NCBI GenBank assembly: GCA_017998385.1
Contig: JAGODE010000001.1
Span: forward strand, 26,457-85,853
Reading direction: 5' to 3'
Length of the DNA: 59,397 nucleotides
DNA from: Chitinophagaceae bacterium
Lineage (GTDB): Bacteria > Bacteroidota > Bacteroidia > Chitinophagales > Chitinophagaceae
Shown here: piece by piece, positions 34,386-58,983 of the stretch
Position numbering within the stretch: position 1 is the stretch's first letter
Layout of the letters: each line of letters begins with the position of its first letter
The notes under the pieces: model-generated
The model's database searches: none
What the model saw: only the letters and a program-made list of their open reading frames with translations
What the model was told of the DNA's origin: nothing
Translations under genes and position numbers: made by a program

Positions 34386-35501
34386 ATGAAGTTTATTGTA
34401 TCATCTTCTTCTCTTCTGAAACAACTGCAGCATATAGCCGGTGTTATTAATGCCAATACGGTGCTTCCCATCCTGGAAGATTTTCTGTTTGAGGTCGAAA
34501 AAAACAAGCTTACGGTAGTCGCCACTGACCTGGAAACCGTAATGCGTATACAGCTCGACATTGAAGCCAGGGAAAGTGGCAAAGTTTGTATTCCCGCACG
34601 TATCCTTATCGACTCGCTCAAAAACATTCCTGATCAGCCGCTTACTTTCAATATTGACAAAAACTTCGGTATTGAAATCACCAGCGACAATGGTAAGTAT
34701 AAGGTAATGGGCGAAAATCCCGATAATTTCCCCAAAGAACCTGCTGCTGACGATACCACATCCTTTACTATTACAGCTTCTGCGCTCATTACAGCTATCA
34801 ATAAGACCCTGTTTGCCACGAGCAACGACGATCTGCGTCCTGCCATGACCGGGGTATTTTTTGAACTGGATAAAAACGGATTGCAGTTTGTGGCCACCGA
34901 TGCGCACCGCCTGGTACGTTACAAACGCAAGGATGTAAGCGGCCCCCGTTCCGACAATTTCATTGTTCCCCGCAAGCCCCTTAACCTGCTTAAAGCAGCG
35001 ATTCCGGCCAATGAAGATGAGCTTACTCTCAGCTACAACAATAATCACCTGTTTGTAAAACACGGTACTACGCAAATGAGCTGTCGCCTTATTGACGCCC
35101 GTTTCCCCGATTACAAAGTGGTGATCCCCGCCGATAACCCTTACCGTCTTACCGTAGGCAAGAGCGATTTTCAAAGTGCCTTGCGCCGGGTAAGCATTTT
35201 CAGCAATAAAAGCACCAACCAGGTTGCGCTGAGCATCAGTGGCAGTGAACTGCAGCTGGCCGCCCAGGATGTTGACTTCAGCTTTGAGGGCAATGAGCGT
35301 ATGAAATGCCAGTACAATGGTGAAGACCTGGTTATTGCCTTCAACGCCAAATTCCTGATCGAAATGCTATCGGCCGCTGATAGTGATGAAGTAAATGTAG
35401 AATTAAGCACTTCTACAAAAGCCGGCCTTATCAAGCCCGTAGAGCAGGACGAAAATGAAGATTTGCTGATGCTGGTAATGCCGCTGATGCTGAATCAATA
35501 A
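34386..35501 (+). CDS. dnaN: DNA polymerase III subunit beta (sliding clamp)
   Basis: MKFIVSSSSLLKQLQHIAGVINANTVLPILEDFLFEV, a length of 371 aa and the C-terminal LMLVMPLML are all typical of DnaN. Confidence 0.95.
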   Translation: MKFIVSSSSLLKQLQHIAGVINANTVLPILEDFLFEVEKNKLTVVATDLETVMRIQLDIEARESGKVCIPARILIDSLKNIPDQPLTFNIDKNFGIEITSDNGKYKVMGENPDNFPKEPAADDTTSFTITASALITAINKTLFATSNDDLRPAMTGVFFELDKNGLQFVATDAHRLVRYKRKDVSGPRSDNFIVPRKPLNLLKAAIPANEDELTLSYNNNHLFVKHGTTQMSCRLIDARFPDYKVVIPADNPYRLTVGKSDFQSALRRVSIFSNKSTNQVALSISGSELQLAAQDVDFSFEGNERMKCQYNGEDLVIAFNAKFLIEMLSAADSDEVNVELSTSTKAGLIKPVEQDENEDLLMLVMPLMLNQ

Positions 35502-43017: not shown

Positions 43018-45171
43018 TTAATACATCTTAGACAAATTATTCTTGATAGTTGCTGCTTCGCGGAGGGCAAGTGGGGGATAAGAACCACGCATTTTGGCCT
43101 GCTGGTACTGTGCTTTGCGCTGTTCGGCCACATTGCTGTCTGTATTGGCTGTAGCAGAAATATCATCCACACGAAGTACATACACACCTTCTGCTCCTTC
43201 GAGCGCCTGGGGCACTACTTTTCCTTTATTCTGCATATTAAAGGCAGCTCCGATTACGCGGGTTTCGCTGCTCAGTGATGCGGGTCGTACGCCGGCAAAA
43301 CGCAGGCTGTCGGCTGTTTCAATATTACGGCCGCCCAAGGCTGCAGCTGCTGCCTCAAGCGTAGTGATAGTGCCGATTTTTTTGGCAATAAGTTCAGCTT
43401 TTTTATGTTTCAGCAGGAGGGGCTCTACCATGTAGCGGGCTTTAGCAGCCGGCATAGTGCCTTCTTTCTGTACATCTGTTACCATGGCTACAACCCAGTT
43501 GTCGCCCACACGCTCAGGAGCCAGCACATCTCCTTTATCGGCGGCATAAATTTCTTTTACAAAATTGCGTGATACGCCCAGACCTACGATTTGTGATCCG
43601 GTGGGAGGAATATCCGTAGCAATCAGTTTGTTGATACCCTGCGCTTTCAGTTTTTCTGCGCTGGCATCAAAAGATTTGGCATCGCGGCTGTCGGCAGCAA
43701 ATTTGTTGGCCAGGTTGTTGGCATTATTATCTGTTTCCTGGCTTGCTTCAATAGCACGGGCAAAATAAGCGATCTTATAATGCTGCTCGGGTTTGATGAA
43801 GCTCATGATATTGATGTAGTGATAACCAAAAGATGTTTTCACCACTTTGCTTTCGCCGGGTTTACCATCAAATAGAATGAACTGTCCAAACTCGGGGGCA
43901 AATCCTTCTGACTGGATTTGTGTAGAAGAGAACGTCATTTCACCAGCAGTAGTACGGGTACCATCGGGGTTATAGCTGGCTGCGAGTGTGGCCCAGCTGG
44001 CTCCGCCTTTAATAGCGGCTTCAATACTGTCAATCTTGCGTTTGGCAGTGCTGTCAGCAAAACCACCCTGCTGTTCGTTGGTGCTGATCAGAATGTGACG
44101 GCATTTTACTGAATCGGGCAGCACTTTGCTGTCGAGCATTTTGGCGAGTACATAACTATTACCATCGAGGTAAGGTCCGTATACTGCATTTTTAGCCAGA
44201 GACAGGATGGTGTCTTTAAAAGAAAGACCCATTTGCATATTGGCCATTGTAAGCTGCGATTTGGGGAAATAGCTGTCTGAGTATTCAAGTGAACTTCCAT
44301 TACGTAATACAAATGATCCGGCGTCAGCTGTTGTGTCAAACTCTGGTTTCAGATCTACAATCGACTTAAGAACTGCTGCACTGTCTTCGCCGGTGGGCAG
44401 CGCACTAAATGCTACATAAGCAATGCTACGGCTTTCTTCCTGTTTGAATTCGCTTTTATGTTTTGCAACATACTCTTCGATTTCCTTATCGGTTACTTTC
44501 ACCGCAGTATCAGCCACATTGGAGTAAAACTCTTTTACAAAAGAAACGCGGGCCATAAGGCTGTTGTCTTCATTTTGTTTTTCGATAAGCCAGCGGGGAA
44601 AGTTGATGCTATTATTAAGGAGTGAAGTATATTTTTCTTCGAGACGCATGTTCTCCAGGCTGTTCAGATACAGATTGAACTGTTCTTTTGATTTGGCATC
44701 TGCTGTTTTCAGCATATTGTCGATAGCCTGTTTGGCAGCCTGTGCATTATATACACCAGTTTCGGGATCAGAAAAACGCTGACGCAGGTCTGCAGGAGGA
44801 TTGGCGCCATAAAGGATATCGCCAAGTTCTTTCTTACCGATCTGCATGCCCAGTTTTTTCATTTCTGTTTCAAGCAGAATACGGTTTACTTCCATGTTCC
44901 AGGCATTGCTCACAGCTTGCTGAGTGAGTGCTTCGCTTTGGGGATAGCCCTGCTGGATCATGTAGTTTTTTTGTTGCTCTACCATGTTGGCAAACTCTGC
45001 CTGCTCAATCGATTTTCCATTTACTTTCCCTACAGATGTGCCGTTGCCACCACGAAAGAGGCTGCCGCCATTTTCGAAAGCAAGCATTACAACAAAAATG
45101 ATCAGGGCCAGGGCAATGATAATGGCCATAAGTTTTGCATACTTCTCCTGGATCTGCTGGATTACTGACAT
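43018..45171 (-). CDS. Periplasmic chaperone / peptidylprolyl isomerase, PpiD/SurA-like
   Basis: N-terminal membrane anchor LMAIIIALALIIFVVML, a long chaperone region, and a parvulin-like segment around VKCRHILIS. Confidence 0.75.
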   Translation of the reverse strand: MSVIQQIQEKYAKLMAIIIALALIIFVVMLAFENGGSLFRGGNGTSVGKVNGKSIEQAEFANMVEQQKNYMIQQGYPQSEALTQQAVSNAWNMEVNRILLETEMKKLGMQIGKKELGDILYGANPPADLRQRFSDPETGVYNAQAAKQAIDNMLKTADAKSKEQFNLYLNSLENMRLEEKYTSLLNNSINFPRWLIEKQNEDNSLMARVSFVKEFYSNVADTAVKVTDKEIEEYVAKHKSEFKQEESRSIAYVAFSALPTGEDSAAVLKSIVDLKPEFDTTADAGSFVLRNGSSLEYSDSYFPKSQLTMANMQMGLSFKDTILSLAKNAVYGPYLDGNSYVLAKMLDSKVLPDSVKCRHILISTNEQQGGFADSTAKRKIDSIEAAIKGGASWATLAASYNPDGTRTTAGEMTFSSTQIQSEGFAPEFGQFILFDGKPGESKVVKTSFGYHYINIMSFIKPEQHYKIAYFARAIEASQETDNNANNLANKFAADSRDAKSFDASAEKLKAQGINKLIATDIPPTGSQIVGLGVSRNFVKEIYAADKGDVLAPERVGDNWVVAMVTDVQKEGTMPAAKARYMVEPLLLKHKKAELIAKKIGTITTLEAAAAALGGRNIETADSLRFAGVRPASLSSETRVIGAAFNMQNKGKVVPQALEGAEGVYVLRVDDISATANTDSNVAEQRKAQYQQAKMRGSYPPLALREAATIKNNLSKMY

Positions 45172-45203
45172 ATTATATTATGTAGGGTTAAAAAAACGGA
45201 TGG

Positions 45204-45211
45204 CAAAAATA
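45204..45211 (-). promoter_or_regulatory. -7 promoter box (TATTTTTG on the minus strand)
   Basis: The plus strand reads CAAAAATA, 33 nt upstream of the 45171 start. Confidence 0.4.
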
Positions 45212-45291
45212 GGGGAATTATAGATATGAAAAAATTGTGGATAACTGCTGGAAAGCCTGTTTTTTCAGGGGTTTACGGGCTTCTGGCAGAA

Positions 45292-45317
45292 TAAAAAAGG
45301 GCTGTCGTAAACAGCCC
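45292..45317 (-). terminator. Intrinsic terminator after the S46 peptidase gene
   Basis: GGGCTGT-CGTAA-ACAGCCC. On the minus strand it is followed by TTTTTT. Confidence 0.75.
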
Positions 45318-45340
45318 TTGAATCTGCTTATCGCGTCAAA

Positions 45341-47482
45341 TCAGGGCCTTTTTTTCGGATTCACCAGTTTCATTTCCTTAACCAGGTGGCCGGCCCCTGC
45401 GTATTTATCTACAATAAATAATACATAGCGAATATCGACCATGATATTACGGCAAATGGAAGGGTCGTAGTTAATATCACTCATTGTTCCCTCCCATACC
45501 CGGTCAAAGTTGAGACCGATCAGGTTACCCCACGCATCAAGGGCAGGGCTGCCCGAGTTGCCGCCGGTGGTATGGTTGCTGGCAATAAAGCAAACCGGCA
45601 TTTTACCATTCGTACCATACGGACCATAATCTTTGGCTGCATATAGCTCGCGGAGGCGGGCAGGCACATCAAATTCATAATCGCCCGGCACATATTTCTG
45701 CATCACACCATCGAGATAGGTATAATAGTCATACTGTACGGCATCGCGGGCCTGGTATCCTTTTACATTGCCATAGGTCACCCGCAGGGTGCTATTGGCA
45801 TCGGGATAAAATTTCTTTTCCTTCATTACCTCCATCTGCGCCTGCATATAAGTGCGTTGCAGTTGATTAATACGATCCTGAATCTGGTTGAGTCGGGCTG
45901 CTACTTTTTCATTATACAGGTCGGCCATATCACTATATATCGCCACCAGTTTATCCTGCTGCAGGCGGCCAATTAAGGCATCCGGATTCTGCTCAAGGGC
46001 CGCCAGCGTGGCCTTGCCATCGGTCAGGCTGCTCTGGCTGTAGAGCTGCCGCGCCAGGGCAGTATAGTCTCCGGATTTGGCCGATGCGGCTACATAGGTT
46101 GCCGGCTGCCCGGCATACATTTCCATCAACCGGCCAAAAAGCTGCTCGTCTACTACAGGGCTGTATTCTTTGTACAGATCACCAAGCCGGTCTTTTACCC
46201 TGGCAAGCACTGTATTATAATTAGACTTTCCTTTAGCATTGCCAAGCGCCCAAAGCTGGTTGATGACGGTAAAAACCTCGATTTTGCTGGTAATTTCCAG
46301 GTAATAATCGCGGGCCAGGCCATAAGGTTTCAGTTCCTCATAAGCTGCTCCGAGGTCCTGCAGCAGCGATCCGTAAGCTGTTTTCCATTGTGCATTACCA
46401 TTTACTCTTTTCTGAAATTCGGCTTCGTAGGCCTTTTTCTTATCCACTGCACCGGTTCTTTTGAGACCCAGCACTTCCCCCTGCCATTTCTTCCAGGCAT
46501 TGCTGATACTGGCATATTTGGCGGCATACTGAATTTTGATACCTTCATCCTTACGCATAAATCCATCGATCACAGCCAGGGCTTTATCGCGGATGGCGAT
46601 TTTGGCCGGATCATTTACATCCATTGTTTGCTCCACCGCTGCAGAATGCAGATACTCCATGGTACGGCCGGGAAAGCCAAAAACCATGGTAAAATCATTT
46701 TGCTGAACGCCCGACATTGAGATAGAAAGTGCTTTTTTGGGTACATAGGGCACATTATCGGGCGAATAATCGGCCGGTTTATTGTCTTTACCGGCATAAA
46801 TGCGAAACATAGAGAAATCGCCTGTATGCCGTGGCCACATCCAGTTATCAGAGTCTTTTCCAAAATTGCCGATAGAAGAGGGGGGAGCGCCTACCAGGCG
46901 TATATCATTATAGGTTTCTGTTACAAAAAGAAAATACTGGTTTCCTTCAAAAAAGGCCCTCACAAATGACTTTTGCCAGGACTCCCTTTTTACCTGCTGA
47001 TTGACCTGACTGATATTTTTATCAATAACAGACTGGCGCTCATTTTCCGCCATTCCTGGCTTTACACCGGCCAGTACCTGGGCACTTACATCGTCAATAC
47101 GTACAATAAATGTTACAAAAAGACCGGGATTCCTCAGTTCCTGGCTCTTATCCATAGCCCAAAAACCATCTCTTATATAATTACGTTCAAGGCTGGAGTG
47201 GTTCTGAATGGCATCAAAACCACAGTGGTGATTGGTAAGTACCAGGCCTTGCGTAGAGATCACTTCACCGGTACAAAAACCACCAAAGCTTACAATTGCA
47301 TCTTTCAGACTGCCATTATTAATACTATATATATCCTTTGCGCTAATCTTCATACCCTTACTCTTCATATCCTTTTCATTCATCTTTTCCAGCAGAAAAG
47401 GAAGCCACATTCCTTCTTCGGCCCGTAAGCAGATTACAGGAAGCAGCAGGAGGCCCAGTAACATAGATTTCAGCTTATTCAT
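45341..47482 (-). CDS. S46 family dipeptidyl-peptidase (DPP7/DPP11-like)
   Basis: Signal peptide then EEGMWLP. Catalytic contexts TNHHCG and GGNSGSP. Length 713 aa. Confidence 0.9.
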   Translation of the reverse strand: MNKLKSMLLGLLLLPVICLRAEEGMWLPFLLEKMNEKDMKSKGMKISAKDIYSINNGSLKDAIVSFGGFCTGEVISTQGLVLTNHHCGFDAIQNHSSLERNYIRDGFWAMDKSQELRNPGLFVTFIVRIDDVSAQVLAGVKPGMAENERQSVIDKNISQVNQQVKRESWQKSFVRAFFEGNQYFLFVTETYNDIRLVGAPPSSIGNFGKDSDNWMWPRHTGDFSMFRIYAGKDNKPADYSPDNVPYVPKKALSISMSGVQQNDFTMVFGFPGRTMEYLHSAAVEQTMDVNDPAKIAIRDKALAVIDGFMRKDEGIKIQYAAKYASISNAWKKWQGEVLGLKRTGAVDKKKAYEAEFQKRVNGNAQWKTAYGSLLQDLGAAYEELKPYGLARDYYLEITSKIEVFTVINQLWALGNAKGKSNYNTVLARVKDRLGDLYKEYSPVVDEQLFGRLMEMYAGQPATYVAASAKSGDYTALARQLYSQSSLTDGKATLAALEQNPDALIGRLQQDKLVAIYSDMADLYNEKVAARLNQIQDRINQLQRTYMQAQMEVMKEKKFYPDANSTLRVTYGNVKGYQARDAVQYDYYTYLDGVMQKYVPGDYEFDVPARLRELYAAKDYGPYGTNGKMPVCFIASNHTTGGNSGSPALDAWGNLIGLNFDRVWEGTMSDINYDPSICRNIMVDIRYVLFIVDKYAGAGHLVKEMKLVNPKKRP

Positions 47483-47529
47483 ATAGTAAACACGTTTTAA
47501 GGCTTAAAAGTAGGCCATTTTATGGTTGA

Positions 47530-47985
47530 GGAAACGGTGGATTAGTCAGAACCGGCAATGCAAAACATCGCCAAAACCGGGTCGCAGGCAAAGAATTTAC
47601 TCCCAAAGACCTGTGGATATCCACTATAATATGTGAATAATGCGGCGTGAAACGTGAACATGAAATAGAATTAATGGCGACAAAATAGTGAGTAGCGGGC
47701 CGGAGCTCGCCGGCCTATTATTAATTCCCGATTTTTCCCATGTCTATCCACATTTTTTGGTCCCGGAAATCTTACTCTTTTAGTACCACCTCACTTATTC
47801 ACTCTTTGTGGATTTCTGCCTCAAATGCAGATGCAACGGGCATGTTTGATGTGAATTACACGTTGAAAAATGTGGATATTGAAAAAACAATAATTTTGTA
47901 TCCTGACTTTTCCACGAATTCACAGCCGTAATAATAATAAGCTTTTTTATAAAAAATATATTAATACAATTATTATTAGAGAAAA
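47530..47985. other. Candidate chromosomal replication origin (oriC): DnaA-box cluster plus an AT-rich unwinding element
   Basis: Boxes relative to TTATCCACA. One mismatch: 47612-47620 TGTGGATAT, 47632-47640 TGTGAATAA, 47744-47752 CTATCCACA, 47871-47879 TGTGGATAT. Two mismatches: 47536-47544, 47617-47625, 47795-47803, 47807-47815. AT tract at 47929-47980. The region is the 575-bp gene-free spacer between divergently oriented gene blocks. Confidence 0.6.
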
Positions 47986-48057
47986 GGGCGGCCAAAGATT
48001 TTCTTTTGAAAAATCGGAAAAGCAGTTGGAATATTGCTCTCTCGAAAAACGATCAGT

Positions 48058-49068
48058 ATGAACACAACAGCATTGAAAACAGCGATGGATGCGGTAAACA
48101 AAAAAGGGTTTCTGGATGTGGACATTGATCCAACACTGGATCTTTTTGCAGAAATACAGCGTCTCAAAAAAGAGAAAAATGCTGTTGTTCTGGCGCACTA
48201 TTACCAGGAAGCTGATATCCAGGACGTGGCTGATTACATTGGCGACAGCCTGGGACTGGCTCAGGAAGCGCAAAAGACCAATGCCGATATGATCGTTTTT
48301 GCTGGTGTGCATTTCATGGCAGAGACTGCCAAGATCCTCAACCCTACCAAAAAAGTGGTGATTCCGGATTTGAAAGCAGGTTGCTCGTTGAGCGACAGCT
48401 GTCCTCCGCCTCTTTTTAAACAGTTCAAAGATCAGCACCCTGACCATGTGGTGGTGAGTTATATCAACTGCAGTGCAGGTATAAAAGCGCTCAGCGATGT
48501 AATTGTGACGAGCAGCAATGCCCGTATCATTGTGGATAGTTTTCCTAAAGATCAGCCGATCATTTTTGCACCAGATAAAAACCTGGGTGCTTATATCAAT
48601 AAAGTGACCGGCCGCAATATGCTGTTGTGGAACGGTGCCTGTATGGTACACGAAATATTCAGCCTCGAGAAAATCACCAAACTTAAAATGAGGCATCCCA
48701 ATGCCAAATTTATTGCTCACCCCGAATGTGAAGAAGCTATCCTTAAAATGGCTGATTACATCGGTTCTACAACGGGACTGCTCAAGTTTACTCAAACAGA
48801 TCCTTCTACGGAGTTTATCGTGGCTACAGAGTCTGGCATACTTCACCAGATGATGAAGGCCAGCCCTGATAAAACGTTTATTCCGGCACCGCCCAATAAC
48901 AGCTGTGCCTGCAATGACTGTCCGCATATGAAGCTCAATTCGCTGGAGAAACTGTATTTGTGTATGGAGTATGAGACACCGGAGATTATTATGGACGAAG
49001 AGCTGCGCCTGGCTGCCCGTAAACCCATCGACCGAATGCTTGAGATCAGTGCTAAGGCTGGTCTTTAA
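48058..49068 (+). CDS. nadA: Quinolinate synthase
   Basis: [26 protein letters not shown] and a CACNDCPHM-type Fe-S ligand region. ATG at 48058. Confidence 0.95.
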
Positions 49069-49079
49069 TTTCCTATACT

Positions 49080-50771
49080 ATGTTTAAAAAATATGCTATT
49101 AACCTGGAGCAGGAAAACCGCAGTGTATACCTGATTGGGTTTTTATGTCTGCTGGTTTATGTGGGATCACTTTTTTTTCCGTTAATGGATAAAGATGCGG
49201 CACACCACGCCAATATTGCATTGCACATGCTGCAGTACAATGACTATCTGAGCCTGGTAGACCGCGATCTGGATTATCTTGACAAACCACACCTGCTTTT
49301 CTGGAGTTCTGCATTAAGCTTTAAACTATTTGGAGTAAATACATTCGCGCATCGTCTTCCCGCTATTTTGTATGCTCTTATCACTTTATTGAGTACTTAC
49401 CGGCTTACACTGCGTCTTACAGATAAATCCACAGCCAGGCTGGCAGCGATCATGCTGGCCACTGCAGAGGGATTTATTCTTTCTATTAATGATGCCCGGA
49501 TGGAAACGCCACTCAGTGCAGGCATTATGCTGGGCATGTGGCAGCTCATCAGTTATGTGGATACAAGGAAATGGTCAAACCTTATTTTCGCTGCATTGGG
49601 TGCAGCTATTGCTTTTAGTACCAAAGGATGGGTAGGACCCGGAATTATATTCGTAGCTACTTTTTTCTATATTCTTTTCCAGAAGAAATGGGATGTACTG
49701 ACTAATATCCGCACATGGGTGTTTATTCCGCTTTTATTTCTTTTTATATCACCTGTTATATACGCGTACTATTATCAGTATGACCTGCATCCCCACAAGG
49801 TTATTAGAAGTATGAGCAATATTTCGGGCGTAAAATTCATTTTGTGGGAGCAAAACTTTGAACGTTTCGGCGGTGATAATTTCAATAAGGGTGGCCGTAA
49901 CAGCAGTTACTTTTTCCTTTACCATACTTTTTTATGGGCTTTTTTTCCCTGGTGCCTTTTTGCCTATATGGCACTTGTGTACTGGATAAAGCGAATGCTG
50001 GTCAACAGAGAATGGAAAACTACCATCAATTTTGCTGCGGTAACCTTTGCACTTGTTTTATTTGGTATTTCCTTCTCTAAGTTTAAAATGCCGCATTATA
50101 TCTTTATGTTAATGCCCCTGGCATCTATTTTTACAGCGGTTTACCTGCGGCAATTGTTAAGCAGGGAAACCGCCGCCAAATGGTTTCTTACCGTTCACCA
50201 GGTATTTGCTGTGCTGGTTCTTATTGCCACCATTGTACTGAACTTTTACTTTTTCAAACCCTTCTCATTCTGGGTATGGATTGGTGGTGGCATTCTGATA
50301 ATCGGTTTACTGAATTTGATGTGGCAGAGGGCCGCTGATAAGGGGCTTAAACTGGTATATGTATCGGTTGGCTTTTCTTTGCTTTTTAACTTCTTTGCCA
50401 ATTACAGTTTTTTTCCGAATCTTTTTAAATACCAGGGAGGGAATGAACTGGTAAAAGTGATGAAAGAGAAGGGTATTAAAATACCTGACGAAAAAATCCT
50501 TTTACTCGACAATAATGCTCATACATTCGATTTTTACCTGGGGCATAATCACCATGTCGCAGATATTGCAAAGCCGGAATTACTTGATAGCAGTAAATAC
50601 TATTTAATCAGCAGTCCGATAGCCAACAACCTGGGAGAAAAGGGTTATCGGATCGACACCATTGCCAGCCATGTGGATTACAATGTATCTACACTAAAGC
50701 TCAAGTTTCTGAATCCAAAAACGAGAGAATCAAAGCTGGATACGCTGATGCTTGCACGGATAATAAAATAG
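49080..50771 (+). CDS. GT39/ArnT-like glycosyltransferase (dolichyl/undecaprenyl-phosphate sugar dependent)
   Basis: 563 aa, more than 10 TM segments. N-terminal loop LMDKDAAHHA...YLDKPHLLFW is typical of ArnT/PMT family proteins. Confidence 0.75.
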   Translation: MFKKYAINLEQENRSVYLIGFLCLLVYVGSLFFPLMDKDAAHHANIALHMLQYNDYLSLVDRDLDYLDKPHLLFWSSALSFKLFGVNTFAHRLPAILYALITLLSTYRLTLRLTDKSTARLAAIMLATAEGFILSINDARMETPLSAGIMLGMWQLISYVDTRKWSNLIFAALGAAIAFSTKGWVGPGIIFVATFFYILFQKKWDVLTNIRTWVFIPLLFLFISPVIYAYYYQYDLHPHKVIRSMSNISGVKFILWEQNFERFGGDNFNKGGRNSSYFFLYHTFLWAFFPWCLFAYMALVYWIKRMLVNREWKTTINFAAVTFALVLFGISFSKFKMPHYIFMLMPLASIFTAVYLRQLLSRETAAKWFLTVHQVFAVLVLIATIVLNFYFFKPFSFWVWIGGGILIIGLLNLMWQRAADKGLKLVYVSVGFSLLFNFFANYSFFPNLFKYQGGNELVKVMKEKGIKIPDEKILLLDNNAHTFDFYLGHNHHVADIAKPELLDSSKYYLISSPIANNLGEKGYRIDTIASHVDYNVSTLKLKFLNPKTRESKLDTLMLARIIK

Positions 50772-50782
50772 AAACAACAGAT

Positions 50783-51451
50783 TTATTTTCGGAATATTTC
50801 TTTGTTTACCGGTCGGTAAATAATCAGAAAAAATAGAAGGGCAATGCCGGCCTCGAGCAACTCTGCGCGTTTACCATGACGGATCATTTCGGTAAGTGCA
50901 AATACCACGAGTATGGAAATAACCTGGTATGCATAAGGGATGGGGATACCACTTTTATCTACAAATTTTTTGAAAGATGCCGATCTCTTATAAATAAGAG
51001 GAAAGAATACAAGATACAAACCCATCGCTGCTACCAGTCCTATAGAAAATACGATCTTATTTACCTTCAGTCCTCCCACAACGAGATTGTGCAGGTTTGT
51101 TTCTCCCTGGGCATTGTTTTTCAGAAAAAATTCAGAACTCTGAATATGAAAAATCCGTTGTCCCCAGGATATTTCTTCGCCGGCTGCAAAGAAGAGCCCG
51201 AGTCCCATAATAAACACTACAAAAAGAAACCAGGGTTTTCGTTGTTTGAAAAGAGTAAATAAGCGATAAAAGCAGGTGGCAGAACCAAGTATCAGGCCCA
51301 ATACGGTTAACCATTCTACCACACCATCTTCCTGCACATAGGTTTCAAACCGGGGTACATTGGTATAAAAGAAATAGAAGCCCAGGGCAAGTATGATTAC
51401 AATAAGGAGGAGTATCAGTTTTTCTATAAGAGAAAGCGTTTTCGACTGCAT
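50783..51451 (-). CDS. Hypothetical polytopic membrane protein
   Basis: ATG at 51451. Six or seven hydrophobic segments. No motif recognised. Confidence 0.5.
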   Translation of the reverse strand: MQSKTLSLIEKLILLLIVIILALGFYFFYTNVPRFETYVQEDGVVEWLTVLGLILGSATCFYRLFTLFKQRKPWFLFVVFIMGLGLFFAAGEEISWGQRIFHIQSSEFFLKNNAQGETNLHNLVVGGLKVNKIVFSIGLVAAMGLYLVFFPLIYKRSASFKKFVDKSGIPIPYAYQVISILVVFALTEMIRHGKRAELLEAGIALLFFLIIYRPVNKEIFRK

Positions 51452-51512
51452 AGATGGATATTTATCAAACAAAGATGGTATGTTTTGGCAAGTTGGCGAA
51501 ATACTTAGTAAA

Positions 51513-52700
51513 TCAAACTATTGAAAGAAGGCGTTGAGCGGCAAGTCGCAGTGTTTCCTCTTTCTTGGCAAAACAGAAACGAATTACTTTATTATCAGTT
51601 CCTTCCTGGTAAAATGAGGAAAGCGGTATGCTGGCCACACCTGCCTCCCGGGTGAGGCGTTTGGCAAATTCCTGATCCGATTCCTGCGAGAAATGCCCGT
51701 ATGAAGCGCAGATAAAATAACTGCCACGACTGGGCAATAGTTTAAAGGGAGTATCTTTTAAGAGCGATATAAAAAAGTCTCTTTTTTGTTGTAGAAAATC
51801 GGCCAGGGTAAGATAAGTTTCTTTTTGCTGTAGAAAATCGGCAAGTGCTACCTGCGAAGGGGTATGACAGGAGAAGCAATTGAACTGATGCAGTTTTCTG
51901 AATTCGGCCATTAGCGCTGGCGATGAGATGGCATAACCAAGTTTCCAACCGGTACAGTGATATACTTTGCCAAACGAAAAGCAGACAAAGCTGCGTTCTA
52001 AAAGATCCGGGTACCGGAGTATACTCAAATGTGGCTGTTTATCATATACCAGGTGTTCATAAACCTCGTCGGACAATATATGCAGTGAATGCCTGTTTAC
52101 TAGCTCTCTTAGTTGTTGTATATCTGTTTCGCTAAGAATGGAGCCGGTAGGATTGTGCGGATTATTTAGAATGATGAGTTTTGTTTTTGAATTAATTCTG
52201 CTGGCTACCTCGTTCCAGTCGATACTGTAATCAGGATAACGAAGAGGGATGCGCACGGGCACGGCCCCGTTTACAGTAATACCCGGTATATAACTGTCAT
52301 AAGCAGGCTCAAAAACAATTACTTCATCTCCCGGGTGAAGTAGTATTGTAAGGGCGGTATAAATGGCGTAAGTACCTCCAGGTGTGATCGTGATCTGCGT
52401 TGTAGGATCGGGTGAGTAATTATACAGGTAGGCGGTTTTATCGGCCAGCACCTGGCGCAGGGGCAGGTAACCCTGCATAGGGGAGTATTGATTACAGCCA
52501 TCTTTCATTGCTTTTGTTACCAGATCAATGAGCAATGGATCCATAGGAAAATCAGGAAAACCCTGGCCCAGGTTTACAGCATTATATTCCTGTGCCAGTG
52601 AACTCATGACAGTAAAAATAGTTGTTCCTACTTCGGGGAGTTTTGACCGAAAGCTCAAGTGATTATTTTTTTCTTGTGATAGTTTTATTAACCAGTTCAT
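51513..52700 (-). CDS. Class I/II pyridoxal-phosphate-dependent aminotransferase (YbdL/methionine aminotransferase-like)
   Basis: KLPEVGTTIFT..MS.LA, NNPHNPTG, and SFGK (the PLP lysine). The ATG at 52700 overlaps the upstream gene by 38 nt. An in-frame TTG at 52658 would remove the overlap and still keep the conserved SKLP N-terminus. Confidence 0.85.
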   Translation of the reverse strand: MNWLIKLSQEKNNHLSFRSKLPEVGTTIFTVMSSLAQEYNAVNLGQGFPDFPMDPLLIDLVTKAMKDGCNQYSPMQGYLPLRQVLADKTAYLYNYSPDPTTQITITPGGTYAIYTALTILLHPGDEVIVFEPAYDSYIPGITVNGAVPVRIPLRYPDYSIDWNEVASRINSKTKLIILNNPHNPTGSILSETDIQQLRELVNRHSLHILSDEVYEHLVYDKQPHLSILRYPDLLERSFVCFSFGKVYHCTGWKLGYAISSPALMAEFRKLHQFNCFSCHTPSQVALADFLQQKETYLTLADFLQQKRDFFISLLKDTPFKLLPSRGSYFICASYGHFSQESDQEFAKRLTREAGVASIPLSSFYQEGTDNKVIRFCFAKKEETLRLAAQRLLSIV

Positions 52701-52998
52701 AAGAATGATCGATCCATTCTTTGATTAGTCGATCTGATATAGAACCATCAAGGATGACAGTATTCCAGTGTTTTTTGTTCATATGGTATCCCGGAAGTAC
52801 CGCCGGGTATTCATCCCTGAGTTCTATGGCTTTATCAGGATCACATTTTACATTGAAACGGGCCGGCTGCTCGTCAAGACCGGCCAGCAGGTAGATTTTA
52901 CCATTTACTTTGTATACTAATGTATCGGGCCCAAAGGGAAATGTTTCTTCTGTTCCGGGTTTTGAAAGACAGTATTCGCGCAGCGATTCTATATGCAT
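52663..52998 (-). CDS. MmcQ/YjbR family protein
   Basis: 111 aa. YCLSKPGTEETFPFGPDTLVYKVNGKIY is typical of YjbR. Confidence 0.7.
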   Translation of the reverse strand: MHIESLREYCLSKPGTEETFPFGPDTLVYKVNGKIYLLAGLDEQPARFNVKCDPDKAIELRDEYPAVLPGYHMNKKHWNTVILDGSISDRLIKEWIDHSYELVNKTITRKK

Positions 52999-53175
52999 AA
53001 TCTATGAATTTAGAATTGCGCAGGCTTCAATCTGTATAAGATATGCAGGATTTATGAGAGCAGACACTTCTACCATAGTGTTGCAGGGCTTAATGTTGCC
53101 AAACACTACAACATAAGCGCGGCCATACTCTTCCCATTTGGTAGCGGGGGGATAGTTTGTTCTTTGCATCTATGT

Positions 53176-53898
53176 TTAATTTTTTATTTCGATATTTTCC
53201 GGAAGAATAATTGGCTCTCCCTGCATACGTAACAGGATTTGCGCTACTGTGAGCACATCTTTCTGGCAATAGGTTACGATTCGTGTGAGTTCCTGATCTT
53301 TCCAGTATACCTCTCCTACTTTGCTGCCATCAATGTCGTCTTTTGGCGTAGGTATACCCAGTGCATGTGCCAGCAGGTTTAGGGAGGTATAATTTTTAAA
53401 ATCACCAAATTTCCAGAGCTCCATGGTGTCAATAAAATTTACCTCCCATGGTTTTTTACCACTATTATCTAATATGATAGGAATGGGAATATTATTTATA
53501 AGCATGCGCCGGCAGAGATAGGGGAAGTCAAACTCTTTGCCATTATGGGCACAAAGAAATTTTGTTTCTCCGGCTGACCATTTTCGCAGCATATCTGCGA
53601 AGGCAAGCAGTATTTCTGCTTCGTTGTTTCCAGAAAAGGATTTGAGGATGATTTTTCTCTGGTTGCTGTTGCCCTGCATTACGCCACAGCTTATGCAAAT
53701 AATTTTTCCAAACTCTGCATAGATAGCAGCTCGCGAATAGATGCTTTCGCGGGTTTCTTCTTCACGGTTGCGTAACAGTGACTCCGCTTTTTTACCCCAA
53801 AGCTCCTGCCATTCCGCAGGCATAGTACTGTAGTCCGGATATTGAGATACGGTTTCAATATCCAGGAAAAGAATGTTGTGTAGCGGGTAATTAGGCAT
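53176..53898 (-). CDS. RNase H-like 3'-5' exonuclease (PolB-exonuclease-related)
   Basis: The Exo I motif FLDIET is near the N-terminus. Downstream acidic motifs (HNGKEFDFP, YCQKD) are consistent with DEDD-type exonucleases. Confidence 0.7.
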   Translation of the reverse strand: MPNYPLHNILFLDIETVSQYPDYSTMPAEWQELWGKKAESLLRNREEETRESIYSRAAIYAEFGKIICISCGVMQGNSNQRKIILKSFSGNNEAEILLAFADMLRKWSAGETKFLCAHNGKEFDFPYLCRRMLINNIPIPIILDNSGKKPWEVNFIDTMELWKFGDFKNYTSLNLLAHALGIPTPKDDIDGSKVGEVYWKDQELTRIVTYCQKDVLTVAQILLRMQGEPIILPENIEIKN

Positions 53899-53972
53899 AG
53901 CAGTATTTGAATGCTAAAGTTACGCATTCAGTATACCGGCGTAAGGGAAATAAACGGAAAAAAAATGTTTTT

Positions 53973-54320
53973 TTAGCCGTGCTGGATCAGGCCAATGTGA
54001 TTACCAAACGGGTCGGCTACTATGGCTACATACATCTCATGACCAACTTCTGTTTTTTCCTGAACCAGTTTTGCCTCAAGGCTTATTAAATGAGCAACAG
54101 CTTCGTCAATGGTTTCCACTTTCCAGTAAGCTACGCTGTGATTGCCGGCACCGGCGTGAGTAGTGTCCGGATCAAGACCCAGTTCAAACCCATTGATATC
54201 AAAACCAACGTAAAAGGGTTGATCAAAATAGGGTTCTTTACCTGTGGCTTTAGTATACCAGGCTTTGGCAGCAGCCAGGTCTTCTGTGTGATAGATAATG
54301 GTACGGAGTTTCTGGAACAT
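53973..54320 (-). CDS. VOC (glyoxalase/bleomycin resistance) family protein
   Basis: 115 aa, with beta-alpha-beta-beta-beta repeat patterning and a C-terminal DPFGNHIGL motif. Confidence 0.75.
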   Translation of the reverse strand: MFQKLRTIIYHTEDLAAAKAWYTKATGKEPYFDQPFYVGFDINGFELGLDPDTTHAGAGNHSVAYWKVETIDEAVAHLISLEAKLVQEKTEVGHEMYVAIVADPFGNHIGLIQHG

Positions 54321-54330
54321 ATAGGGTTTG

Positions 54331-55413
54331 TTAAAGGAATTTATCTCCTTTGTTTCGTTTCACCTCAGCAAGATAGTCCTTTATTTCCTGTTCTTTTTCT
54401 TTTTTGCAGATGAGTAATACATCTGGAGTATCAACGATGATAAAATCTTCGAGCCCCTGCAACAAGACCAGTTTATTATCAGGTACATGTACCATTGAGT
54501 TGAGACTATCGAACACCATTACATGTTTACCTACAACAGCATTGTGATAGTAGTCGCGTTCCATGTTTTGCCAGGCACTGTTCCAGGTACCGAGATCGCT
54601 CCATTCAAAAGAAGCGGGAATTACATATACATTCGAGGCTTTTTCCATTATACCAAAGTCAATGGAGATATTGGTGCATTGCGGATAAATTCGCTCGAGC
54701 GCTTCGGCTTCTGAGGGTGTATTAAACAGATCTTTTTCTGCTGCAAAAACTTCATGCATTTCCGGGAGGTGGTTTTCAAATGCATGGATGATGTTTTTTA
54801 TTTTCCAGGTAAAGATGCCTGCGTTCCACAGAAAATCGCCACTGCTGATGAATGTTTTGGCGAGTTCGAGGTTAGGTTTTTCTGTAAATGTTTTTACTTT
54901 ATAAATACCAGGCGCTACTTCTGCATCTTCATGCTGTATGTAACCATAACCCGTATTGGGGTGTGTGGGTTTTATGCCAATTGTTACAAGTGCATTAATA
55001 TGGTCTACAAAGTGCAGGGCTTTTTGAGCTGTTTCTAAGAAGGCCGGCTGATCAAGAATGAGGTGATCTGCTGGTGAGGCAATCATAAGGGCATCGGGAT
55101 CTTTCTGAAACAATTTAAATGCTATATATGCAATGCAGGGAGCGGTGTTTTTGCGGGAAGGTTCCGCGAGGATGTTTTCCTGTGGGAGAGAGGGAAGTTG
55201 CTGGTGAACAAGATCCACATATTCTTTGGCAGTAATAACAAATATATTCTCACTGGGTACAAGCTGGCTGTACCTGTCGAAAGTTTGCTGGATCAGGGTT
55301 TTGCCGGTTCCCAGGATATCGAGAAATTGTTTGGGATAATTAGCTCTGCTCATGGGCCAGAAGCGACTGCCGATACCGCCGGCCATTATTGCTACATAGT
55401 TCTTTTTGTTCAT
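54331..55413 (-). CDS. Mannose-1-phosphate guanylyltransferase
   Basis: N-terminal AIMAGGIGSRFWPMSR nucleotidyltransferase motif. Length 360 aa. Confidence 0.85.
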   Translation of the reverse strand: MNKKNYVAIMAGGIGSRFWPMSRANYPKQFLDILGTGKTLIQQTFDRYSQLVPSENIFVITAKEYVDLVHQQLPSLPQENILAEPSRKNTAPCIAYIAFKLFQKDPDALMIASPADHLILDQPAFLETAQKALHFVDHINALVTIGIKPTHPNTGYGYIQHEDAEVAPGIYKVKTFTEKPNLELAKTFISSGDFLWNAGIFTWKIKNIIHAFENHLPEMHEVFAAEKDLFNTPSEAEALERIYPQCTNISIDFGIMEKASNVYVIPASFEWSDLGTWNSAWQNMERDYYHNAVVGKHVMVFDSLNSMVHVPDNKLVLLQGLEDFIIVDTPDVLLICKKEKEQEIKDYLAEVKRNKGDKFL

Positions 55414-55438
55414 TACTCTTCGTATTTCAATAATAGTT

Positions 55439-56404
55439 TTAAAGAAGACCTTCCCGAATCAGATCATGTAAATGTAGCATACCCAGGTAACGCCCTTCTT
55501 CTACAACTGCAAGTTGTGTTATCTCGTGTTTACGGAGCAGATCAAGTGCTTCTACGGCAAGTGCATCGGGTCTGATAGTTTTAGGGTTAACGGTCATAAT
55601 ATCTGCGGCCTGCAGATTTTTATCAAACCCTGTATTTTTCCGCAGCATTCTTCTGAGATCACCATCGGTAATTATACCCAGCAGCTGATCGGTTGAATCT
55701 GTTACAGCGGTTACACCGAGTCTTTTCTGGGTCATTTCCAGTATCACATCCTGCAGGTTTGTAGCTGGCGTAACCGCTGGTTTTTCATTACTGGGATAAA
55801 GGTCTCCTACGCGCAGGTAGAGTTTTTTTCCGAGCGTGCCTCCCGGATGGAAGCGGGCAAAATCATCTGGTTGAAACCCTTTTAATTCCATCAGGCATAC
55901 AGCCAGGGCATCTCCCATTACAAGTTGTGCTGTTGTGCTGGAGGTTGGCGCCAGGTTGTTGGGACAGGCTTCCTGCTGAACAGTAGTATCGAGTACAAGT
56001 GTTGCCTGCCGTGCCAGATAGGACTGTGTGTTTCCTACCATTGCAATAAGCGTGTTACCAAAGTTTTTGATGAGAGGAACCAGCACTTTTATTTCGGGGC
56101 TTTCTCCGCTTTTGCTGAGGATAAGTACAATATCGTGTTCCTGCACCATGCCGAGATCTCCATGAATTGCATCTGCAGCGTGCATAAAGATGGAAGGGGT
56201 GCCGGTTGAATTAAGGGTCGCTACAATTTTCTGAGCGATTACCGCACTTTTTCCTATGCCGCTGATAACCAGCCGCCCCGGACAGTTTGCAATGGCATTT
56301 ACAGCCGCTTCAAAATCTGCATTGATGGCCGCCTTCAGGCCTTCAATCGATTGTGCTTCCAATTCAATAGTGCGGCGGGCAATTTCTGAGAGTTGAATAG
56401 ACAT
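55439..56404 (-). CDS. kdsD: KpsF/GutQ family arabinose-5-phosphate isomerase (SIS domain plus CBS pair)
   Basis: SIS motif ISGIGKSAVIAQK and a C-terminal tandem CBS pair. The symbol is inferred from kdsB and LPS genes nearby. Confidence 0.85.
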   Translation of the reverse strand: MSIQLSEIARRTIELEAQSIEGLKAAINADFEAAVNAIANCPGRLVISGIGKSAVIAQKIVATLNSTGTPSIFMHAADAIHGDLGMVQEHDIVLILSKSGESPEIKVLVPLIKNFGNTLIAMVGNTQSYLARQATLVLDTTVQQEACPNNLAPTSSTTAQLVMGDALAVCLMELKGFQPDDFARFHPGGTLGKKLYLRVGDLYPSNEKPAVTPATNLQDVILEMTQKRLGVTAVTDSTDQLLGIITDGDLRRMLRKNTGFDKNLQAADIMTVNPKTIRPDALAVEALDLLRKHEITQLAVVEEGRYLGMLHLHDLIREGLL

Positions 56405-56718: not shown

Positions 56719-58983
56719 ATGGCAACATCTACAGTTAAAAAATCCGGCTCACGTAAGCCGGCAAAGGTTAAGGAATCTGATTCTGGTAAAACTCGTTTCG
56801 ATCTGCACGAAAAATTACAGGAGTATTTTGGATTTGATAAGTTTAAAGGCACGCAGGAAAAGGTTATAGAATCCCTGTTGGCAGGCCATGATACATTTGT
56901 GATCATGCCTACCGGTGGCGGTAAAAGCCTTTGCTACCAATTGCCTGCTATGGTGAGCGAGGGTGTTGCGATTATCGTTTCGCCGCTTATCGCGCTGATG
57001 AAAAACCAGGTTGACCTGGTCCGCAGTTATAGCAGTAATGATGAGGTGGCGCACTTTCTGAATTCCACCCTTACCAAAAGGGAAATAAAAGAAGTGCATG
57101 ACGACCTGCTGACGGGTAAAACCAAGATGTTGTATGTGGCGCCGGAAACGCTTACCAAGCAGGAAAACCTGGAGTTCTTCTCTGATCTCAAAATTTCTTT
57201 TTTTGCAGTAGACGAAGCCCATTGTATTTCTGAGTGGGGCCATGATTTCAGACCGGAATACCGCCGGTTACGTGAAATGATGGTTCAGATCAATCCCGAT
57301 ATACCCGTTATTGCCCTTACCGCTACCGCTACTCCAAAGGTGCAGAGTGATATCGTAAAAAATCTGGACCTGCGTGATCCCAATATATTTATTTCTTCTT
57401 TTAACAGGCCCAATCTTTATTACGAAGTATTACCCAAAATAAAAAAGGCACAAACAGATGAAAGTATTGTGCGGGTTATAAAAGGAATGGCTGGCAGGAG
57501 TGGTATTATATATACCCTCAACCGCAAGACCACAGAGGAAATGGCCGATCTGCTGAATGCAAATGGAATAAAATCTGTAGCCTACCATGCGGGTCTTGAC
57601 AGTAAGCTGCGTGCCGAACGCCAGGACCTTTTTCTTAATGAAGAGGTGCAGGTGATATGCGCTACCATTGCCTTTGGTATGGGAATCGATAAACCAGATA
57701 TCCGGTTTGTGATTCATTACAATATTCCCAAGTCGATTGAGAACTATTACCAGGAAACTGGTCGCGCCGGTCGCGATGGACTTGAAGGACGCTGTATCCT
57801 TTATTATTCACACAAGGATGTAAGCAAGCTGGAACACCTTATGCGCGATAAGCCGCTTAGCGAGCGGGAAGTTGGTGCCCAGCTGATTAACGAAACCGTA
57901 GCCTTTGCCGAAGCAGGAGTGTGCCGCCGTAAGGTTTTGATGAGTTATTTTGGTGAAGAGTACGAGAAGGAAAATTGTGGTGAGTGTGATAACTGTAAGC
58001 ATCCGAAGGAGAAAATTGAAGCCAAAGAGGATGCTGTCGTTGTGTTGAAAGCGATTCGCGCACTCGATGAACGCTTTGCTACAGATTATGTGGTGCAGAT
58101 CATCGGAGGCAGGCTTACTCCTCAGATACAGATGTTCCGGCACGAAGGGCTGGAAGTATTTGCCAGTGGAAACGATAAAGAGCCTCATTTCTGGAATTCT
58201 CTGATAAGGCAGATGCTGCTGGATGGCTTGCTGAGTAAGGATATAGAGGAGTACGGTGTATTGAAGTTTACAAAGAAAGGTGAGGCGTTTCTGAAAAAGC
58301 CCAAATCGTTTAAGATAGTCCTCAATAATCTTTATGAAGAAGCCAATGCCGATGACGAGGAAGGTACAGAAGCAAGTACTGGCGGGGCTACTGACGAGAA
58401 GCTTTTTGAAATGCTTAAGGAGCTTCGTCAAAAAGAGGCAAAGAAAAAGAATCTGCCTCCTTTTGTGATTTTCCTGGAAACATCGCTGCAGGACATGGCA
58501 ACGCTTTATCCAACTACAGTGAGTGACCTGGAAAAGTGTCAGGGAGTTAGTAAAGGCAAGGCGATTCGTTATGGTAAGCCATTTGTTGAGATGGTTGCCC
58601 GTTATGTAGAGGATAACAATATTGTAAAGCCCGACGATTTTGTGATGAAGAGTGTGGTGAATAAGAGCGGGAACAAGGTATATATTATCCAGAACACCGA
58701 TAAAAAGGTAAGCCTGGAGACAATTGCCCGCAATAAGGGGTGGCGTATGGACGAGATGCTGGAGGAGATGGAGACTATTGCCGCCAGTGGTACCAAGCTT
58801 AACCTCGATTATGCAATCGATGAAATGCTGGACGAGACTGAGCAGGATGAAATCATTGAATATTTTAAAGGATGTGATACCTCCTCGCTGCAGGTAGCGC
58901 AGGAGGAACTTTCTGAGCATAATTTCAACTGGGAGCAGTTGAAAATCATGCGGATCAAATTTTTGAGCGAATACGGCATGTAA
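56719..58983 (+). CDS. recQ: ATP-dependent DNA helicase RecQ
   Basis: FGFDKFKGTQ, PTGGGKSLCYQLPA, DEAHCISEWGHDFRP, a zinc-binding Cys cluster CGECDNC, and an HRDC-like region. There is a basic ~25-aa N-terminal extension. Confidence 0.95.
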   Translation: MATSTVKKSGSRKPAKVKESDSGKTRFDLHEKLQEYFGFDKFKGTQEKVIESLLAGHDTFVIMPTGGGKSLCYQLPAMVSEGVAIIVSPLIALMKNQVDLVRSYSSNDEVAHFLNSTLTKREIKEVHDDLLTGKTKMLYVAPETLTKQENLEFFSDLKISFFAVDEAHCISEWGHDFRPEYRRLREMMVQINPDIPVIALTATATPKVQSDIVKNLDLRDPNIFISSFNRPNLYYEVLPKIKKAQTDESIVRVIKGMAGRSGIIYTLNRKTTEEMADLLNANGIKSVAYHAGLDSKLRAERQDLFLNEEVQVICATIAFGMGIDKPDIRFVIHYNIPKSIENYYQETGRAGRDGLEGRCILYYSHKDVSKLEHLMRDKPLSEREVGAQLINETVAFAEAGVCRRKVLMSYFGEEYEKENCGECDNCKHPKEKIEAKEDAVVVLKAIRALDERFATDYVVQIIGGRLTPQIQMFRHEGLEVFASGNDKEPHFWNSLIRQMLLDGLLSKDIEEYGVLKFTKKGEAFLKKPKSFKIVLNNLYEEANADDEEGTEASTGGATDEKLFEMLKELRQKEAKKKNLPPFVIFLETSLQDMATLYPTTVSDLEKCQGVSKGKAIRYGKPFVEMVARYVEDNNIVKPDDFVMKSVVNKSGNKVYIIQNTDKKVSLETIARNKGWRMDEMLEEMETIAASGTKLNLDYAIDEMLDETEQDEIIEYFKGCDTSSLQVAQEELSEHNFNWEQLKIMRIKFLSEYGM

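Follow-up and report, generated by a model that had tools for sequence, protein, structure and literature searches.

A DnaA-box cluster with a BUS-like module upstream of nadA as the probable chromosomal replication origin of a Chitinophagaceae bacterium

For the basal unwinding system (BUS) of Bacillus subtilis oriC, counterparts have been tested in Staphylococcus aureus, Listeria, Enterococcus, Helicobacter, Synechococcus and Deinococcus (Richardson 2016/2019; Pelliciari 2021). By published definition (Pelliciari 2021, PMC8287927), a BUS comprises a DnaA box with at most two mismatches, an optional tandem second box with at most four mismatches, a spacer of at most 16 bp (mode 10-13 bp) between box and first DnaA-trio, and at least three consecutive 3'-NAN-5' trios on the strand that runs 5'-trios-box(TGTGGATAA)-3'. 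The supplementary table of the same study (PMC8287927) includes two members of the Chitinophagaceae with DoriC origins, namely Niastella koreensis GR20-10 (NC_016609; ORI95030423), whose BUS reads AATAGGTGA TTAAGTGT CGG CATTATCATTAT, and Chitinophaga pinensis DSM 2588 (NC_013132; ORI93020100), whose BUS, CAAAAGTGT ATAAGTGT CGG GATTATCATCAC, is a close variant of the former. Both origins are computational predictions, obtained by Z-curve and box criteria on complete genomes.

Origins of Bacteroidetes are commonly located far from dnaA, as described with reference to DoriC for Prevotella intermedia OMA14 (PMC4755523), and the predicted origin of Elizabethkingia meningoseptica also lies away from dnaA (PMC8994065). 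These two predicted origins each consist of an intergenic box cluster and AT-rich DNA, as does the locus presented here, and are situated at or close to a transition of GC skew. A literature search on Chitinophaga oriC, or on nadA beside oriC, returned nothing relevant.

We analysed a stretch of 59,397 nucleotides (the window) from a metagenome-assembled contig of an uncultured Chitinophagaceae bacterium. Its largest gene-free gap (551-575 bp; 37.6% G+C) separates an S46 family peptidase gene on the left from nadA, encoding quinolinate synthase, on the right (Table 1). The preliminary description had called this spacer the only large one of the window and proposed it as oriC; it is indeed the largest, but the next gaps still measure 454, 418 and 344 bp. 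According to our analysis, the spacer is very probably the DnaA-dependent chromosomal oriC of this bacterium. The proposal is supported by a conserved box cluster, by conservation islands that coincide with box cores, by a BUS-like module that recurs in all delimitable spacers of relatives, by the match of this module to catalogued predicted origins and, at low resolution, by a sign change of GC3 skew.

Table 1. Features of the spacer and its flanking genes (window coordinates; mismatches relative to the DnaA-box consensus TTATCCACA).
Feature	Position	Strand	Remarks
S46 family peptidase gene, left flank	45341..47482	-	Pfam PF10459, E = 3e-233
S46 / nadA spacer	47483..48057	.	candidate oriC plus two divergent promoter regions
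DnaA box TAATCCACC	47536..47544	-	2 mismatches; leftmost; poorly conserved in relatives
Overlapping inverted boxes	47612..47625		ATATCCACA, -, 47612-47620, 1 mismatch; ATATCCACT, +, 47617-47625, 2 mismatches
DnaA box TTATTCACA	47632..47640	-	1 mismatch; 20 bp from the 47612 box
Conserved block TGAAACGTGaAcAtgaAA	47648..47665	.	relatives: ACGTGGATAT, a further box-like site, degenerate in the window
DnaA box CTATCCACA	47744..47752	+	1 mismatch; CCACA core conserved
Inverted box pair	47795..47815		TTATTCACT, +, 47795-47803; AAATCCACA, -, 47807-47815; 2 mismatches each
DnaA box TAATTCACA	47850..47858	-	2 mismatches; 58 bp left of BUS box 1
DnaA box ATATCCACA	47871..47879	-	1 mismatch; 21 bp from the 47850 box
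BUS box 1 TTTTCCACG	47908..47916	+	2 mismatches; TTATCCACN in most relatives
BUS box 2 GAATTCACA	47916..47924	+	3 mismatches; NAATYCACA in relatives; abuts box 1
Short G+C spacer GCC	47925..47927	.	between boxes and trios; positions 18-20 mostly G/C in relatives
Four DnaA-trios	47928..47939	-	plus strand GTA ATA ATA ATA; minus strand 3'-CAT TAT TAT TAT-5'
AT-rich tract, presumed DNA-unwinding element	47940..47981	.	
Likely nadA promoter TTGAAA, 18 nt, TG-n-AATATT	48006..48035	+	consensus scan; putative function
nadA (quinolinate synthase), right flank	48058..49068	+	Pfam PF02445, E = 1e-122

DnaA boxes were searched on both strands of the whole 59-kb window, allowing at most one or at most two mismatches to the consensus. 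The spacer contains four boxes at the stricter and ten at the looser threshold. The former are those already described (starting at 47612, 47632, 47744 and 47871); the two-mismatch boxes include the four reported earlier (47536, 47617, 47795 and 47807) as well as two that had been overlooked, at 47850 and 47908. At both thresholds the spacer represents the maximum of all 575-bp sliding windows, and every 575-bp window that reaches this maximum overlaps it. In the complete window we counted 29 boxes with at most one mismatch, versus 15.0 +- 3.5 in dinucleotide shuffles of the 59.4 kb (0.15 per 575 bp); outside the spacer, 25 such boxes are spread over 58.8 kb (0.24 per 575 bp). With the rest of the real window as background (0.24), the Poisson probability of finding at least four boxes in 575 bp is about 1e-4 per window, or about 0.01 if roughly 100 windows are allowed for. 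Ori-Finder looks for at least three intergenic boxes with at most one mismatch, and the spacer has four.

The sole perfect TTATCCACA of the window is found at 45236-45244 on the minus strand, in a 169-bp gap between a PpiD-like gene (43018-45171) and the S46 gene. Seven relatives that carry the PpiD-like gene have a T[T/A]TCCACA box on the same strand of the equivalent gap (L004, L008, L010, L015, L018, L022 and L049), and in the pooled loci the bin from -3 to -2 kb has a box density of 0.72 per kb, about twice that of the flanks. Situated 2.3 kb from the candidate origin, this box may represent an outlying DnaA site. Twelve of the 29 window boxes with at most one mismatch fall into the 6 kb from 45001 to 51000; eight of these are outside the spacer, located inside the S46, nadA and PMT_2 genes or in adjoining gaps. 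This regional excess is only weak in relatives.

The key element of the spacer, which the preliminary description did not contain, is a module at 47908-47939. It is composed of the tandem boxes TTTTCCACG/GAATTCACA, a GCC spacer and the triplets GTA ATA ATA ATA, followed by the AT tract. Relative to the published BUS definition, the boxes show two (47908) and three (47916) mismatches, box 1 is separated from the first trio by 11 bp and box 2 by 3 bp (GCC), and four trios follow one another on the minus strand. The trio strand was assigned according to the published need for a 5'-tail carrying the trios and to the layout of the published BUS table. One point against the origin reading is the weakness of the BUS boxes in the window, with their two and three mismatches. 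The loose published criterion (a box with at most two mismatches plus at least three NAN triplets) is too permissive, with 64 matching sites in the window, and we rejected it as stand-alone evidence. A strict pattern (tandem boxes, 2-5 nt and at least three NTA) is unique in the window; it was found upstream of nadA in 57 of 75 eligible loci and at only one other site in 1.3 Mb, counting both strands.

The AT tract to the right of the boxes, to which the preliminary description had drawn attention, turned out to be the extreme of the window. Positions 47929-47978 (A+T 47/50) form both the most AT-rich 50-mer of the 59 kb and the least stable one, with a nearest-neighbour dG of -46.2 versus a mean of -68.6 (sd 4.7). 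An AT-rich candidate unwinding element is thus present beside the boxes. The tract is bracketed by the inverted repeat TAATAATAAT / ATTATTATTA. In four relatives (L015, L031, L044 and L049), a TGTGGATAA-oriented box 69-84 bp to the right of BUS box 1 would complete a mirror-image BUS. Such an arrangement is not general: boxes with at most one mismatch occur on that side of the AT tract in only 4 of 60 relatives, and the window lacks one.

A comparison with DoriC had been suggested before, and the module does match the BUS of both the N. koreensis and the C. pinensis entries. The complement of the N. koreensis BUS is TTATCCACT AATTCACA GCC GTAATAGTAATA, whereas the window reads TTTTCCACG AATTCACA GCC GTAATAATAATA; 28 of 32 positions are alike and four differ, and the window element is therefore a homologue of the origins that DoriC predicts in this family. 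In one relative (locus L076), the string upstream of nadA agrees with the N. koreensis complement at 31 of 32 positions, the single difference being the variable ninth base of box 1. Both DoriC entries share with the window the order and spacing of the module, namely a 9-nt box, an abutting box of 8-9 nt, a 3-nt GC spacer and four NAT trios. The window comes from a different, uncultured species, and its box 1 (TTTTCCACG) is weaker. The adjacency of the two catalogued origins to nadA is deduced from other Niastella species (L039, L051 and L055).

The same architecture characterizes the B. subtilis-type BUS: tandem boxes of which the upstream one is nearer to the consensus, a distance of about 11-13 bp between the better box and the first trio, and at least three trios with a central adenine on the 5'-tail strand, followed by AT-rich DNA. 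The S. aureus string AATAGGTGG TTAGGTGT CGTG GATGATGAT... has exactly the layout of the window, and in the published table the succession of a box, an abutting box, 3-4 nt of GC spacer and trios is the classical one of S. aureus and further tested species. Differences are that the window trios are 3'-YAT-5' (CAT/TAT) rather than the commonest form, 3'-GAT-5', and that the candidate origin of the window is located away from both dnaA and dnaN. Unlike in bipartite origins, no second box cluster across a gene was seen at the window locus.

Scanning GTDB species genomes with the NadA protein yielded 80 loci, all from Chitinophagaceae or Chitinophagales, with 77-88% NadA identity. For about 65 of the 80 loci, a search of +-10 kb places the densest cluster of boxes with at most one mismatch 250-800 bp upstream of nadA; most of the remaining loci are on contigs that end before the spacer. 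The order S46(-) / spacer / nadA(+) is kept in the 60 loci with a delimitable spacer (59 relatives and the window), with S46 genes of about 710-770 aa and spacers of 377-994 bp. This gene context is shown here only for Chitinophagaceae and Chitinophagales; the comparison with other Bacteroidetes origins covered box clusters, AT-rich DNA, skew and the distance from dnaA. Box density amounts to 6.1 per kb in the 59 related spacers versus 0.14-0.72 per kb in the flanks, counted in 1-kb bins, and is thereby about 17 times the flank level. An exact-protein look-up of NadA had a 4.3-kb Logan contig as its sole match and added no context.

When 23 spacers were aligned with MAFFT, nearly all conserved islands proved to be cores of DnaA boxes (TGTGGAT or TGTGAAT). 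The TGTGGA core of the overlapping pair at 47612..47625 is kept in at least 75% of the 23 aligned relatives, the 47632 box is conserved as TGTGaATAA and the 47807 box as TGTGGA. Upstream of the module, boxes with at most one mismatch favour the minus strand by 159:29 and recur about 60 and 48 bp to its left. The position at about -60, corresponding to the 47850 box, which is conserved in the alignment, is occupied in 36 of 60 spacers, and the -48 bin, near the offset of the 47871 box (the window's own is at -37), in 32 of 60. Mid-spacer, in the stretch that is least conserved among relatives, a GC-rich hairpin, GGGCCGGAGCTCGCCGGCCT then ATTATTAATT, is located at 47697-47716; it has the appearance of an insertion peculiar to this lineage or of a small terminator-like element inside the origin region.

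The best-conserved stretch of the spacer is 47908-47981, that is, the module and its AT tract. As a fuzzy pattern, TTATCCACN-AATYCACA-N3-(NTA)4 plus AT tract is present in 60/60 spacers with fixed spacing and without any indel. Invariant or nearly so are T2, T4, C5, C6 and C8 of box 1 and A11, T12, A15, C16 and A17 of box 2. Conservation of the trios has a 3-nt periodicity: the TA pairs are invariant or almost invariant (59-60 of 60), and variation is confined to the first base of the plus-strand triplets (A/G 50:10, 32:28 and 45:14). On the minus strand, the family pattern is 3'-NAT YAT YAT YAT-5', with the central adenine conserved. An AT block (34-39/40) is found in all 60 spacers, usually directly after the trios. 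As a minor point, the invariant AT and the free first base are evidence from natural variation that DnaA proteins of this family may read a 3'-NAT-5' trio rather than GAT.

The leading strand is G-rich. Raw GC skew is -0.027 in the left and +0.042 in the right flank, a sign pattern present in 43 of 46 loci, and we do not use it as origin evidence; because it is confounded by the divergent orientation of the genes, tests of GC3 skew (GC skew at codon third positions) and regression were applied instead. With gene strand regressed out, GC3 skew has a side coefficient of +0.033 (bootstrap sd 0.006), which persists if genes within 3.5 kb are excluded. Per locus, the right-minus-left difference in GC3 skew is +0.063 and is positive in 32 of 44 cases. 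In these local data, GC3 skew changes from negative to positive across the locus, the polarity of an origin. The resolution is only about 5 kb: moving the assumed origin 5 kb leftwards leaves the right-minus-left difference unchanged, and in the binned profile the sign switches some 4 kb to the left of the spacer, with the signal fading by +8-10 kb. Within the window, right-flank GC3 skew is +0.14 for genes of either strand. That of the left flank (plus-strand letters) is negative only from 24 to 43 kb and positive from 1 to 24 kb, contrary to the prediction from a simple origin at 47.7 kb, for which the left flank should be negative throughout. Possible causes of the anomalous 1-24 kb skew are an intra-replichore inversion, an island or foreign block, or a chimeric MAG contig, with a boundary near 24.5 kb.

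Flanking genes had been described as pointing away from the spacer, as expected for co-orientation with replication. This is true of the first three genes to the left and the first two to the right, but not beyond, where 50783-56404 is all minus strand. In view of the missing bias beyond the immediate neighbours (beyond 3.5 kb, co-orientation amounts to 44% in the left and 51% in the right flank), the argument is weak; we dropped it, as the effect is owed to the nearest conserved genes only.

As reported before, dnaN is located at 34386-35501, 12.4 kb from the spacer and, by Pfam, without an adjacent dnaA; among all window ORFs of at least 300 aa, none matched the DnaA Pfam family. The absence of the dnaA-dnaN-oriC synteny therefore stands, but it is not a notable feature, being the documented norm for Bacteroidetes (PMC4755523). 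Instead of indicator genes such as dnaA, dnaN, rpmH, gidA or hemE, the spacer has the S46 peptidase gene and nadA as neighbours; an adjacent indicator gene supports the assignment of an oriC without defining it. DNA-metabolism genes within 13 kb of the origin are dnaN, an exonuclease gene (53176-53898; PolB-exonuclease-like / RNase H-fold 3'-5' exonuclease according to Pfam) and recQ (56719-58983), which carries a RecQ-1-like HTH. Two minus-strand ORFs, 310-1860 (516 aa) and 32931-34256 (441 aa), had no Pfam match at E <= 1e-5; the latter is situated directly upstream of dnaN and divergent from it.

Between the AT tract and nadA there is a promoter-like site, about 25 bp from the tract on its left and about 25 bp from the start codon on its right, and a TTGAAAA...GGAATATTGC block is conserved in close relatives. 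Judged from its consensus elements, TTGAAA-18-AATATT probably drives nadA, which would be compatible with an origin and would not replace one. Given the distance of about 25 bp, nadA transcription would start at the very edge of the unwinding element. Since this promoter would fire away from the unwinding element at such short distance, nadA transcription could modulate origin opening, and in E. coli, gidA/mioC transcription has been discussed as affecting the origin similarly. That the Chitinophagaceae origin is functionally coupled to nadA in this way, with transcription for NAD biosynthesis linking metabolic state to initiation, is a speculation to which we give little weight. A search of the spacer against Rfam, including for a nadA riboswitch, gave no match at gathering score and otherwise only chance-level hits (E of about 0.9 or more), and a riboswitch or sRNA was therefore rejected. 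A plasmid or mobile-element origin was rejected as well, no similarity being present in PLSDB.

Conserved clusters of DnaA boxes also exist outside origins, as exemplified by E. coli datA and DARS1/2. The main rival explanation is hence a DnaA locus without origin function, be it a datA/DARS-like titration or recharging site or a DnaA-controlled promoter region of nadA and/or the S46 gene, with the origin elsewhere. Both datA and DARS resemble the window locus in that several DnaA boxes are grouped within a short piece of non-coding DNA remote from dnaA. The likely nadA promoter so close to the AT tract and a skew change that is not sharply at the spacer are in line with such a site. On the other hand, we know of no trio array or unwinding element in datA or DARS, nor of any need of titration or regulatory sites for a module of fixed geometry made of tandem boxes, GC spacer, trios and AT tract. 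At the locus studied here, it is just this trio-plus-AT module that is most constrained, with 3-nt periodicity, and that is essentially unique in 1.3 Mb. Moreover, DoriC picked the homologous site on two complete genomes from whole-chromosome Z-curves. Taken together, we regard a non-origin DnaA locus as improbable.

Even less probable, and in our view very much so, is that the spacer is one of two origins, either a relic or a secondary one, while the main origin fires elsewhere, for example near dnaA. The anomalous skew of the left flank would fit this, and dual predicted origins have reportedly been proposed in other lineages (in a 2025 bioRxiv preprint). A relic would be expected to decay, yet boxes, spacing and trios are strictly constrained down to 77% NadA identity, and DoriC lists the homologous site for both complete genomes checked. 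A chance pile-up of box-like 9-mers without DnaA function, for which one might invoke the AT-richness of this promoter spacer (37.6% G+C) and the 64 matches to the loose BUS criterion, is effectively refuted by the comparative data and has a negligible likelihood, given the per-window probability of about 1e-4, the 17-fold excess repeated in about 60 species at conserved offsets and the coincidence of conservation islands with box cores.

The assignment as oriC builds on what is observed at the locus: sequence elements in statistical excess, which are strictly conserved with a fixed geometry across the family, the identity with catalogued predicted origins and a skew change of the right polarity. 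By analogy with the BUS of B. subtilis and S. aureus, DnaA binding, unwinding and helicase loading would take place at this spacer as follows. DnaA would occupy about eight double-stranded boxes between 47536 and 47879, mostly TGTGGATAA on the plus strand, and in addition the tandem, oppositely oriented boxes at 47908-47924. From this tandem pair, a DnaA-ATP filament would extend onto the minus-strand trios 3'-CAT TAT TAT TAT-5' (47928-47939), stretch the trio strand and open the adjacent unstable AT tract (47940-47981), where the replicative helicase would be loaded.

The data support the view that the element is an ordinary find, an oriC homologous to DoriC predictions and of canonical BUS build, and that those features deemed unusual at first represent the norm of the phylum. 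Current understanding of initiation is left unchanged by it. For the organism, a probable origin is now placed on a metagenome-assembled Chitinophagaceae contig, which is of use for replichore orientation and for growth-rate estimates from read depth. The Ori-Finder list of indicator genes has no Bacteroidetes-specific entry, and the S46-nadA gene pair is a practical marker for oriC in Chitinophagaceae. Vectors based on such an oriC are a possible use in a family with few genetic tools. Finally, conservation across 60 species, as judged from the aligned spacers, supports the notion that the BUS (box-trio-AT) operates in Bacteroidota.
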